This document shows, in pieces, positions 29,734 through 33,951 of a stretch of DNA of 64,000 nucleotides (positions within the stretch are counted from its first letter, which is position 1; every line of letters starts with the position of its first letter). The notes beneath the pieces are model-generated. The model saw only the letters and a program-made list of their open reading frames with translations. It had not been told where the DNA came from and searched no databases. Both the position numbers and the translations under genes were made by a program. Source of the DNA: Phyllosticta citribraziliensis (Eukaryota); contig NW_027117339.1 in NCBI RefSeq assembly GCF_038025025.1, positions 1,364,001-1,428,000 of the forward strand, in the 5' to 3' direction.

Positions 29734-31590
29734 TCAGACAGACGAGGCAGAAGAGTACGAGACGGGTTGCTGACCCTTTGAGGCCAGGACGCTGCTAAGA
29801 GCGTCGCGGACCTCGAACTCCTCGATGACGGCGCCGAAGCTGTATGCGGAGAAGAAATGGCAAGTCAGTCTTTTGGAGTCCTTGTGGGATGCTGCCGTTG
29901 AAAGTTGCGCGTTTTTGGGTCGGTTGGTGTTTGTTGGAGAGGGGATAAGAAAAACGGTAATACAGCAATCGTCGTAGAAAGCAAGGAGACAAAGACAGAG
30001 ACCGAGGGAAACAGAGAAAGGGGATGATGAATGGAGGCTACAGAGGCTATCAAGGTTCTCGTGCCAGATATCATGAAAAGATAATAATCAACCCCGGGGA
30101 AAGTGCTCTTGTGTTGATATGGTAATATGCGTGTGCTGAAAAAGTCGTCGAAGAAATCGCAGGTCAAACATACCCATAACACCGCACCTTGGCCAACAGG
30201 TCCTCCTTCATAATGGCCATGTCATCCGTGGTGAGCTCGGCCAGGCGAGGGTGACCCAAGATCATGGCCCATGCCATGACGGGCGTCATCTCGCCCTCCA
30301 TGACTGGCAGCCTGTTGCTCAAATCGAGCAGTTTCATGAGGTCACCTGTGCCGACGTCGGGCATCTTGTGGGGATATTGCTCCTTGGGAGCGTTCGCAAT
30401 GTGCGAGTGCGGCGGGCACGTCGTCATCAGGGCGTGGCCCGATACTTCGGCCTCGCTGTCCTGGCTGCGTACCAGTAAGAATTGCATGTGGTCCATGCAT
30501 GGCTTCTCGAGACTGCAATGCCGGTGCGCAACGAGACGTCAGATTAGTGATTTCCAGAGACGTGGTGGGCTTGAGTTTGCTTCAGAGAACCGCCTTTGGG
30601 TGATGGATAGAGGGCCCGGAAAGCACAAGAGGGGTCCGTTACCTACCTGCCAGAGGTAGGTGGGCGGGCTCATTTGCTGACCGTGCTACTGAGGTGGTGG
30701 AGAGAGATAGGGTGTGCGGTCGTACGTTAAAACAAAATCAATGCCAATTTGGTCATAGTTCATCCCGTTGTTTTGCGGGAGGACTCCTGGATGGGCGGGA
30801 GCCATGCCCGCCATGGACATATTTGCAGCGCCGCGCTGAGGTATCGAGGGCGGCGGAGATGTGTAACCGGTTGAGGCGGAGCCAGTGTTGTAGCTTCCCG
30901 AAACGCTTCCCCTCGAGCTTCCGTCGTAGCTTGATGTTCCAGCCATTCGAAACCCGCCGCTCGGACTGTTGGTGTCGTAGCTTATGCCATGGGCGGCCAA
31001 GAGTTCCTTGAGCCTCCTGTTTTCTTCGGCAATGGCATCGCGCTCCTGCGCCGTGACGGCAAAGAGGTCCTTTAGGCGCAAGACTTCCTGCTCCAAGGCT
31101 TTGATGTACATTTCCTTGCGCTCTCGGTGGGTCCTGGGCGGACGTGAGACCAAGTTGGGACGGCCGGGATCAGGCTACGTACCGCTGTGCTTGGCGATTG
31201 AGCTCTTGCCTGCGCGTCAAGGCAGGCTTGCTGTCAGGCTTGGGGCCGCGCCTCTTTGGCGGCTGACCATCTGCGGAGTTCAGCCAACCAATCACTCGAC
31301 TTGTTGGGGAGCAAACCTCTTGTCATTTTCTTGTCTCCAAACTTTCCGAAAAAAGGGAAACTTGAAAGAGGGTGTTTGGGGCTGGTTTCGGTTTCTGATA
31401 CGGCATACGGCGGTTGGCACTCCACCGTCTGCACGAGGCTCGTCGACGCGGTCGTCTTGCTCGAAATATGCTCCACGGATGGAGCAGAGGAACGGGCAGG
31501 ATCGAAGCGGTCGACGGCCTCGAGGGGTGGAGAGCCATGGCCGCAAGGCATTAGCGACGTGTCCCAAGTAGTGGCGGTTGCTTGAATCAT
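29734..31590 (-). CDS. flbB: bZIP transcription factor, FlbB orthologue (asexual development regulator); start codon uncertain
   Basis: Spliced translation: ..KKMTR|DGQPPKRRGPKPDSKPALTRRQELNRQAQR|THRERKEMYIKALEQEVLRL..IGIDFVLT|LEKPCMDHMQ..SGHALM..TPVMAW..KVRCYG|FGAVIEEFEVRDAL..*. These motifs match Aspergillus FlbB as I recall it. Confidence 0.85.
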
Positions 31591-32602
31591 TTTGCAACGC
31601 TACGGCGGGGGTCGAAGGAGGATGGAAGACCAGAGGGGAAGGAGAGGTAGGTAGGTGGGTACAAAAGAGCAAACGAATCCTTTGGGCATTGAAGAAAATG
31701 GCATGAAGACAAGAGGCTAGATTCAAACAGAAAGAGGAGCCGGTCAGACTAAGGCTCCCAGACGTGCGGTGCCAGACAATGCCGCAGGGCAGGTCATATG
31801 GCAAGGTAGCCTGTCAGAGACTAGTGTTGATGGCGGCAAAGTTGGGACGCTAAGCAATTGACAGGGCCATGACCCAAAAGGAGAGGGACAAACGGACGAA
31901 AGAAAGGTCGACTTACCGAAAGCGTTGGACTGCTGGTGGAAGTGTTGGTCCATGTTGTCTGGCGAGAGGGCGGCCATGGTGGGTCAATGGGCGCATGGAC
32001 TGGGGCAGGAACAAGATTGCGGGAAGGATGGGGTTGATGGTGTGGAGAAGATGGAAGGATTCTGGAAGAGCCGGGGCGGTGTTTAATAGTTAGGTGGACT
32101 GGCGGTGATGTCGCATGAAGCTCTGATCACAGGGTGCGACGGGAGTGGTTGAGCAGAGATGCGGATACTGACGTCTGACAGATGAGGCGCAGAGCAGAGC
32201 GAGATGTCTGGCAGTCTGTCTGTTCTGGCGGATGACAAAAAGGGCGTCACGTCGAGAGGTTCCAGCGTTTCGACGCTTGGACGCAAAGAGACGGCGCGGT
32301 GGATTTGGAATGGGCGGGGCGGGCGTGGAAGACGAGGCTGCGGGCATGGGTCTGGAGCGGGCCGCGTCCAGGCGGGAGGGGAGGATGCTTCCTTGGAGCT
32401 TGGAGCTTGGAGCTTGTTGCTTGGAGCTTGGTAGTCGATGCTTGAAGGATGGCGAGGGAGAGATGATGTCGAGCGTTTGGAGGGAGGTTAGTCAGGCAGG
32501 GCAGGCAGGGCTACCTGTACATCCAAGTCAGGAGCAGGAGCAGGAGCAGGACGGGCCGGCGACGCTCCCTCCCGGGCCCCCCTCCGCTCCCTCAGCTGAT
32601 GG

Positions 32603-32637
32603 CCGACCGACCGACCGACCCGACCGACCCGACCCGA

Positions 32638-32685
<48 letters not shown>
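32603..32685 (+). repeat. Degenerate microsatellite (CCGA)n/(CCCGA)n/(CCCCGA)n in the divergent flbB-acyltransferase intergenic region
   Basis: Visible directly; the minus strand reads (GGGGTC)n. Confidence 0.9.
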
Positions 32686-32764
32686 ACTCCCTCTCTTCTC
32701 TCCCTCCCACGTCTCCCCTCCCCCAGACTTCTCTCACACCTCACATACCGTACCGTAGTCATCC

Positions 32765-33951
32765 ATGGCCGCCCTGTATCCCCTCCACCTCCACCTCGTC
32801 TCCACACCGCTCCGCCTCGTGCGCGCCGTAGTCCTCGTGCTCCCCTGGCTGGCCTACCTGCTGCTCGTCGACGCCGTGCTGTCTCTCTTGTTGCCCTTCA
32901 AGCTCTTCGCCCCCACGGCCGTCTACAACGCCTCGTCTGTGCTCGCCGAATCTGTCTGGGCTTGGATCCAGGCCGTCTTCACCCGCTGCAATCGCGCCCG
33001 CATCGTCGTCTCCACAAGCTGCCCGCTGCCCCGTGCTGAGTCCGCCATCGTCGTTTCCAACCATGTTGCCTGGAGCGACTTTTACATGATCCAGCAGCTT
33101 GCCCTGCACCAGGGAATGCTTGGCCGCTGCCGCTGGTTCGCCAAGAAGTCGTTGCGTTGGGTGCCCTTTCTCGGCTGGGGCCTCTGGGCCATGGGCATGC
33201 CCCTCGTGAGCAGACGCTGGACCACCGACCGCCTCGAGTTGGACAGAGTCTTCCGAGGCATCATCCATAGACAATGGCCCGTCTGTACGTATCCTGCCTA
33301 CCTGCCTGCCTGCCTGTCCTTTCCTCGCCTCCCGCGCCATTTTCGCCGGAACCCGTCCGGTTGGCTGCAGTTCCCATGCTCGTGTGCCCTCATGAAAATG
33401 TCCCTGTCCGTTTTTGGACCCCTGTGCACTACCACACCATCTGCCATGTCTGTCTGCTGCTAACTCATCTTCCAGGGCTCGTCTCCTATAGTGAAGGCAC
33501 ACGCTTCACCTCGGCAGCCCACACTGCTGCTGTTGCCTACTCCAAGTCCCATTTGCGGCCCGCCCCGATCCACACCTTGCTCCCGCGGCCCAAGGGCTTC
33601 GTTGCCGCCGTTACGGCCCTACGAGCTGCGCCTCAAGTCCGCGCCGTTTACGACGTTACGATAGCCTATTCAAAGGCTGGCTCTCCTCTTCGCTTCCAGG
33701 CTGCCGGCGCCCCATCTTTCTGGCAAACCCTCGTGACTCCCAACTTTTACGAGGCCGGATGGCGCACCTTTGTCCATGTCGACCGTTTTGAGCTTAGCCA
33801 GTTGCCAGAAGATGACGATGGTCTGGCGGCATGGTTAGACGGGAGATGGGTCGCCAAGGGGCAGAGGCTCGAGGGTCTGCGGGAAGCGCTGGCCAAAGGC
33901 GAGTCCTGGGTCGACGATCAAGGCCTGGGAGGCGTCGTGTTAGAGAAGTGA
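32765..33951 (+). CDS. Phospholipid/glycerol acyltransferase (PlsC domain, Cst26/LCLAT1-like)
   Basis: Motif I NHVAWSDF, FAKKSLRWVPFLGWG, motif III SYSEGTRF, TLLPRPKGF and VYDVTIAY. Intron ~33286-33475. Confidence 0.9.

Follow-up and report, generated by a model that had tools for sequence, protein, structure and literature searches.

The bZIP factor FosB loses its C-terminal part by alternative splicing, and the product, delta-FosB, still binds DNA and dimerises. The protein and its function are established, in an animal gene whose origin is unrelated to flbB. To our knowledge, delta-FosB carries no conserved new tail. Among fungal transcription factors, the splice variants of Ste12 offer a comparison. 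At the flbB locus described here the DNA-binding and dimerisation domain is likewise kept and the C-terminal domain lost (224 versus 359 aa), as known here from RNA forms.

FlbB is a model for fungal tip-to-nucleus signalling, a behaviour that depends on its C-terminal domain. Orthologues of FlbB are characterised by tip localisation that depends on FlbE and by control of brlA. In Aspergillus nidulans, both the tip localisation or accumulation of FlbB and conidiation require C272 and C382, and passage through the tip is a prerequisite for timely brlA control (10.1101/467563). C272 and C382 are the two cysteines reported as fully conserved in Dothideomycetes (PMC3053368). In Zymoseptoria tritici, deletion mutants of flbB showed no sporulation phenotype (PMC6102487). 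Aspergillus fumigatus flbB produces two transcripts and two polypeptides, FlbB alpha and beta, both of which are needed; these (420 and 390 aa) differ by start codon, and the C-terminal domain is not lost (review PMC3741515).

Intron retention in A. nidulans AN1569 puts a premature stop after the DNA-binding domain, and the retained form is the more abundant. Unlike the case of flbB, no conserved intron-encoded tail or second donor is reported in the accessible text (PMC8396895). Alternative splicing coupled to nonsense-mediated decay (AS-NMD) likewise involves a conserved event, one that places a stop over 50 nt before a junction, in the available part of PMC6173133; in flbB, on the other hand, most of the message carries the stop, and the additional codons are under protein constraint.

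Truncating splice variants of transcription factors are already known; a conserved short form of FlbB with a tail was not found in print. The literature searched, with most subscription papers outside its scope, held no C-terminally truncated or retained FlbB isoform and no such tail, and a search on the tail motif found nothing relevant. The supplements of genome-wide splicing studies (PMC9801653, PMC4029826, PMC8942408) may list the event. In the accessible A. nidulans FlbB literature only full-length forms appear.

Structure and identity of the locus

The flbB orthologue of a Phyllosticta lay on the minus strand, from 31977 to 29734 of the window (the whole stretch of 64,000 nt that was analysed). 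RNA contigs came from four of the nine listed runs, X1, X2, X3 and X8, two with the label of the window's species and two of relatives; X4–X7 and X9 were outside the set. All four runs showed spliced joints and therefore contained RNA. The features, all on the minus strand, were as follows.

31917–31977, minus: exon 1, first in-frame ATG at 31977; joint 31917/31394 in runs X1 and X2
31395–31916, minus: intron 1, 522 nt (RNA contigs; retained form 7% of depth in X1)
31317–31394, minus: exon 2 (RNA contigs)
31271–31316, minus: intron 2, 46 nt (joint in all four runs; no retained contig)
31183–31270, minus: exon 3, bZIP basic region RRGPKPDSKPALTRRQELNRQAQR (RNA contigs, translation)
31134–31182, minus: intron 3, 49 nt (RNA contigs; no retained contig)
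30726–31133, minus: exon 4, with leucine zipper, Ser/Pro-rich linker and first half of helix 1 of the C-terminal domain (..YDQIGIDFVLT)
30513–30725, minus: intron 4, 213 nt, kept whole in the major message (RNA contigs)
30720–30725, minus: proximal donor AAC/GTACGA, weak; its use gives the full-length 359 aa
30686–30725, minus: intron-encoded tail YDRTPYLSPPPQ and stop TAG (30688–30686), the end of the 224-aa short form
30641–30646, minus: distal donor CAG/GTAGGT, not seen used in the window's species, counterpart used in relatives
30642, minus: third GT, TAG/GTAACG (sequence)
30641–30661, minus: predicted 8-bp hairpin over distal donor positions −2 to +6 (fold; weak lead)
30537–30548, minus: branch-point-like ACTAATC (30548) and TCTGACG (30543) (sequence)
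30513–30515, minus: shared acceptor CAG (TGCAG, ends 30513) (sequence, RNA joint)
30174–30512, minus: exon 5, C-terminal domain with PCMDH (C217) and KVRCYG (C323); 3' UTR in the short form
29840–30173, minus: intron 5, 334 nt (retained at 17% in X1); part of the 3' UTR when the short form is made
29734–29839, minus: coding part of exon 6, including the full-length stop

The window's exon 5 was 96% identical to a protein of Phyllosticta paracitricarpa and 95% to one of P. capitalensis, and had a single match in its own genome. In a 27-row tree, which carried a long-branch warning and did not include the A. nidulans protein, the P. paracitricarpa protein P0121 stood in for the window's gene. 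It grouped with Eurotiomycete, Sordariomycete and Leotiomycete orthologues and was split from eight paralogues (100/100). P0121 shared 40% identity with a Talaromyces orthologue over 363 columns.

An N-terminal bZIP was present, with RGPKPDSKPA-TRRQELNRQAQRTHRERKE invariant in 20 of 20 sequences. Pfam bZIP_1 matched P0121 at E 2.4e-4 (21.6 bits, below the cut-off of 27.6). The predicted structure of P0121 (mean pLDDT 59.6) had a long helix at 111–168, and a fold search covering the coiled coil alone returned only coiled coils (Z at most 6.5). FlbB orthologues are expected to have a Yap1/Pap1-like C-terminal domain; a PAP1 match (E 0.016) was confined to the C-end of P0217.

C217 (PCMDH) is, by spacing, the equivalent of C272, and C323 (KVRCYG) is that of C382; the window's KVRCYGFG agreed with the C382 oligonucleotide of PMC3053368. 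The window gene had five introns, the same number as reported for FlbB orthologues. The bZIP, the cysteine equivalents and the number of introns are shared with A. nidulans FlbB as far as described in the accessible text of PMC3053368 and 10.1101/467563. The name flbB given in the preliminary description stands.

Three further features of the region were observed. Intron 1 contained an open frame (31395–31590, minus strand) that begins with an ATG at 31590 (MIQATATTWDTSLMPCGHGSPP..) and continues into exon 2. This ATG is also the start of similar-looking GenBank models from two Phyllosticta species, Neofusicoccum and Macrophomina. It may be an annotation error that they share, or a second N-terminus that would recall A. 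fumigatus alpha and beta. Intron 5 was 334 nt long in the window, versus 46–81 nt in 24 other distinct copies. A GTCGGG/GGTC simple repeat occupied 32600–32690, between flbB and a divergent frame at 32759–33463 that reads as acyltransferase-like.

Two predicted proteins encoded across intron 4

The distal donor at 30646 was 79 nt beyond the proximal donor, and the stop TAG was 39 nt before it. The distal donor matched the U1 consensus at 9 of 11 positions, and the proximal donor at 5 of 11. The preliminary description had proposed a weak donor at 30725, a stronger one at 30646, a shared acceptor, and a tail and stop between the donors; all were found at those minus-strand positions, with the same spacing and order of strength.

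Joining 30725 to 30513 encodes IDFVLT-LEKPCMDH, and flbB spliced as in the RNA gave a protein of 359 aa. Retention and distal splicing gave one identical protein of 224 aa, ending in FVLTYDRTPYLSPPPQ. By translation this form keeps the bZIP and lacks the C-terminal domain with the C272 and C382 equivalents, as had been claimed for the truncated isoform. From its stop to the intron-5 junction there were 512 nt in the retained form and 378 nt in the distal form; AS-NMD calls for at least 50 nt, and such an arrangement may trigger NMD. The position of intron 4 splits a predicted helix (247–273 of P0121) at the beginning of the C-terminal domain.

The hairpin predicted over the distal donor was equally closed in 70 of 1000 shuffles, and its counterpart in locus L033 in 26 of 1000. 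The constitutive intron-3 donor was as closed as the distal donor (8 of 200 shuffles). On these comparisons we treated the hairpin only as a lead. The fold of the whole intron 4 had no unusual structure (z −0.2).

The proximal donor did not have T at +6 in 41 of 42 distinct introns. The Leu codon before it (window 30726–30730, minus strand) was TTA or CTA in 35 of 42 distinct loci, which creates a branch-point-like YTAAC at the donor. This may aid U5 pairing or hinder U1.

Retention of intron 4 in the RNA

The joint 30725>30513 had depths of 636.7, 47.8, 68.5 and 0 in X1, X2, X3 and X8, and an unbroken contig over intron 4 (30483–30755) had depths of 1204.9, 74.5 and 139.9 in X1, X2 and X3; these are contig means, not junction counts, from contigs that do not phase introns and lose rare forms. 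By contig depth, retention amounted to 65% in X1, 61% in X2 and 67% in X3. The retained form was the sole one in X8, in which a contig (30174–31132) kept intron 4 with introns 2, 3 and 5 removed. Among the other introns in X1, intron 1 was retained at 7% and intron 5 at 17%, and introns 2 and 3 gave no retained contig. A partial intron-5 contig in X2 had a depth of 164 versus 351.

The short message supposed in the preliminary description does exist, in all four runs and abundantly, and the full-length joint was found in three of them. The short message seen in the window's species, and in two close relatives, arises by retention of the whole intron.

Exon depths on either side of intron 4 were nearly equal in X1 (2376/2285) and X3 (249/215), and cleavage inside the intron was therefore not the main route. 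Intronic polyadenylation as the main route was rejected on these depths and on the retained contig being joined at both ends; X2, with a strong 3' bias, was uninformative.

No joint using 30646 or 30642 appeared in the contigs of the four runs, and the retained contig was unbroken across 30646. This bears on whether the distal donor is the main route to the short form in this species. The donor is strong (9 of 11), its counterpart is conserved and used in relatives, and in X1 the retained and spliced depths together (1842) fell about 20% below the exon depth (2285–2376), which leaves room for a lost minor branch. On the other hand, the distal intron would be 134 nt, versus 48–64 nt in 20 of the 22 introns listed, and the hairpin may tentatively cover the donor. 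We consider this route very improbable as the main one. Because rare forms are lost from contigs and a fifth of the X1 exon depth is missing, minor use of 30646 may well occur, and we give it an even chance. The two-donor route proposed earlier therefore stood in relatives (loci L011, L040, L050 and L055, below), and in the window's species retention was seen without a 30646 joint.

The retained or distal form might instead serve only to lower the dose of full-length FlbB, by NMD or nuclear detention, with the tail acting as an RNA element that steers donor choice. This alternative is a real one because the stop precedes intron 5 by 512 nt and the exon junction complex takes part in Neurospora NMD (PMC6173133). 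It would also fit the weak proximal donor and the rare Leu codon, TTA or CTA, before it. Against it, the stop-bearing form predominated at steady state, with 61–67% of contig depth, where AS-NMD would deplete it.

Conservation and codon pattern of the tail

A first homologue search, with a query that included the tail, gave 597 matches; among the best 120, 73 had the window's tail and 117 the motif. This search was biased by the tail in its query, and conservation was therefore retested without it. A profile search without the tail found 30 short forms among the 150 matches listed, 17 of them with the motif.

Metagenome loci were gathered by bZIP patterns only. Of 274 confirmed loci the best 80 were kept, and the window was added as the 81st row. 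These rows comprised 49 complete introns, 8 cut ones, 4 distal-spliced, 12 without the intron and 8 not scored. The motif [YH][LMPI]SP[PS] was in frame in 57 of the 61 rows showing the 5' end of the intron (window included), and in 38 of 42 distinct ones, counts that ignore kinship and over-represent Pleosporales-like loci. The four rows without it were L059, L061, L062 and L072. The preliminary description had staked its reading partly on the tail being conserved in relatives, and on conservation that reading holds strongly.

Over the 23 distinct tails of equal length, pN/pS was 0.16 in the coding frame, while the two remaining frames gave 2.1 and 6.7. The minor letters of these tails were distributed 12/2/48 over codon positions 1/2/3. 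Variant tail codon types were synonymous in 19 of 28 cases (p 7e-5 versus an assumed 0.31, by a statistic that ignores the tree). The spacer before the motif had seven lengths, from 5 to 17 codons, and the frame was always kept. In 73 of 78 motif-bearing tails, among 112 distinct tails examined, the Ser of the Ser-Pro was 4–5 residues from the C-terminus. The pN of the tail (0.059) was above that of the flanking exon codons (0.032 and 0.016).

Synonymous divergence was 0.37 in the tail versus 0.80 and 0.62 in the flanking exon codons. At about half that of the exons, it suggested that an RNA-level constraint or splicing element probably overlaps the tail. The reduced synonymous change and the position of the stop far upstream of the intron-5 junction are what a device for lowering FlbB dose would show. 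Such an RNA element, however, needs neither changes that follow codon position nor a single frame, and it does not require the motif in frame over seven spacer lengths. We regard the dose-lowering explanation as unlikely, though to be taken seriously. The abundance of the stop-bearing form and the coding-type changes in the tail lead us to argue, against the NMD alternative, that the short form has a role as a protein.

The tail could also be an accident of read-through, from the neutral leak of a weak intron. Retention is the commonest splicing variant in fungi (PMC9801653, accessible text), and the tail was lost in several lineages. This is largely refuted by the motif in 38 of 42 distinct introns and by the coding-type evolution, and the Eurotiomycete read-throughs described below give the look of unselected tails; we hold it to be highly improbable.

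The tail was also considered as a hidden pyrimidine tract with an acceptor. This was rejected, as several relatives end in CAA-CAA-TAA without AG.

Within the linker of 55 of 120 full-length proteins (P0121–P0240) there was a YTSPP, which resembles the tail motif, and YPSPP occurred 6 times. The tail may be a second copy of a motif already used in the FlbB linker.

Second donor and routes in relatives

A donor of the form GT[AG]NG[TC], behind the stop and at least 45 nt before the acceptor, was present in 23 of 29 distinct long introns, versus 3.4 expected from shuffles. In 20 of those 23 it was 50–65 nt before the acceptor. None of eight intron-5 controls had one. The window's distal donor was unusually strong and unusually far (134 nt) from the acceptor.

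Distal splicing was used: L011 matched L012 except that the final 52 nt of the intron (GTACGT..TAACAG) were missing from it, with 380 of 382 letters alike. L040, L050 and L055 were distal-spliced too, with the acceptor exon joined without AG. Sorting of 27 transcript-type contigs, under a ranking that favoured full-length forms, gave 9 full-length, 11 retained, 3 with the distal donor, 1 cut inside the intron and 3 without anchor; L050 was the fourth distal-donor contig by separate intron analyses. L046, which ends in AG and has a branch-type site, was scored as retained, not distal.

Ten short introns (61–88 nt) had no room for a second donor. In Leotiomycete-like short introns the stop adjoined the branch point (tagCTAAC), and retained transcripts were found (L032, L066). 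We concluded that selection keeps the product while the route varies.

In the window, as in L033, a CAG stands just before the distal donor and could in principle serve as an acceptor (CAG/GT, 30647/30646); the distal product would then be an intermediate of a two-step, recursive removal leading to full-length mRNA. Only 2 of the 22 introns listed had AG before the distal donor, no branch-type hexamer was upstream of 30647, no 30725>30647 joint was found, and the distal-spliced transcripts of relatives end without AG. A recursive splice site, or a pair of abutting twin introns, was ruled out by the first three of these, and we give two-step removal practically no credence.

Taxonomic spread and loss of the tail

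Named holders of the tail were Dothideomycetes (Curvularia, Alternaria, Pseudocercospora, Trypethelium), Arthoniomycetes (Coniocarpon), Candelariomycetes (Candelina), Coniocybomycetes (Sclerophora), Leotiomycetes (Botrytis) and Sordariomycetes (Hypoxylon, Diatrype, Thielaviopsis and others). The short form is already in databases as an unlabelled model. Some GenBank genes had both forms, such as Pseudocercospora AC578_549 (P0202, P0440), or gave the short form as an alternative transcript, t2 or t3, as in models P0287 and P0113.

A Eurotiomycete query without the tail gave 119 matches: 22 Eurotiomycete-type read-throughs, typed by the PQL/PEL anchor context, 80 other short forms and 17 without anchor. 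The Eurotiomycete-type sequences had the intron at the same place but without a conserved tail; the read-through was random and the motif was present in 1 of 22. In 19 of these read-throughs the first codons read stop or x-Val, the outcome expected of canonical donors. The other short forms had the motif in 49 of 80, and the 31 without it included Fusarium culmorum, Pyricularia grisea, Sporothrix and Microdochium. In Eurotiomycetes the donor appears to have been hardened and the tail lost, judging from these sequences.

L020 and L037 were genomic-looking copies without intron 4, capable of the full-length protein only. Five Sclerotiniaceae models (P0442, P0451, P0211, P0204, P0228) pointed to additional splicing within the tail (..DSSSTFLSPPRQ joined to upstream sequence; ..TYGKDSSST-LERPC), and flbB may have more than two isoforms in this family.

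A probable splice switch in FlbB

We interpreted intron 4 as probably a splice switch of old origin, maintained by selection, that chooses between the full-length and the truncated FlbB. Use of the weak proximal donor gives the 359-aa protein. If that donor is skipped, the frame continues through 12 intron codons, ending Y-[L/M/P]-S-P-P-P, to a stop. The resulting 224-aa protein would retain the bZIP, for DNA binding and dimerisation, and would lack the folded C-terminal domain together with both essential cysteines. The bypass would be by whole-intron retention, the main route seen in the window's species, or, in many Dothideomycetes, by the second donor, which would remove only an intron of standard length from the new 3' UTR.

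The short message is presumably translated. Its protein would be unable to carry out the tip-localising step and would be nuclear without that control. It may bind the same sites or dimerise with full-length FlbB, damping or altering the output. The tail would be a short linear motif, at a guess a proline-directed phosphorylation site or a degron, that sets activity or half-life.

A wider reading is possible, and we put it forward tentatively: ancestral FlbB would have been a two-protein system, with the commonest product outside Eurotiomycetes a short, tip-skipping bZIP with a conserved C-terminal phospho-motif of its own, and with the splicing ratio as a developmental or stress switch. If so, FlbB would have become a dedicated activator of conidiation in Aspergillus partly through the steps by which Eurotiomycetes lost the tail and hardened the donor.

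At intron 4 of flbB, a splicing event has been maintained in six fungal classes. Part of the intron is under selection at the protein level, and two routes, interchangeable in outcome, lead to the same product. If most flbB messages elsewhere lack the C-terminal domain, then annotations, C-terminal tags and complementation with a single cDNA would miss the main product. The role of flbB outside Aspergillus would then be testable isoform by isoform.
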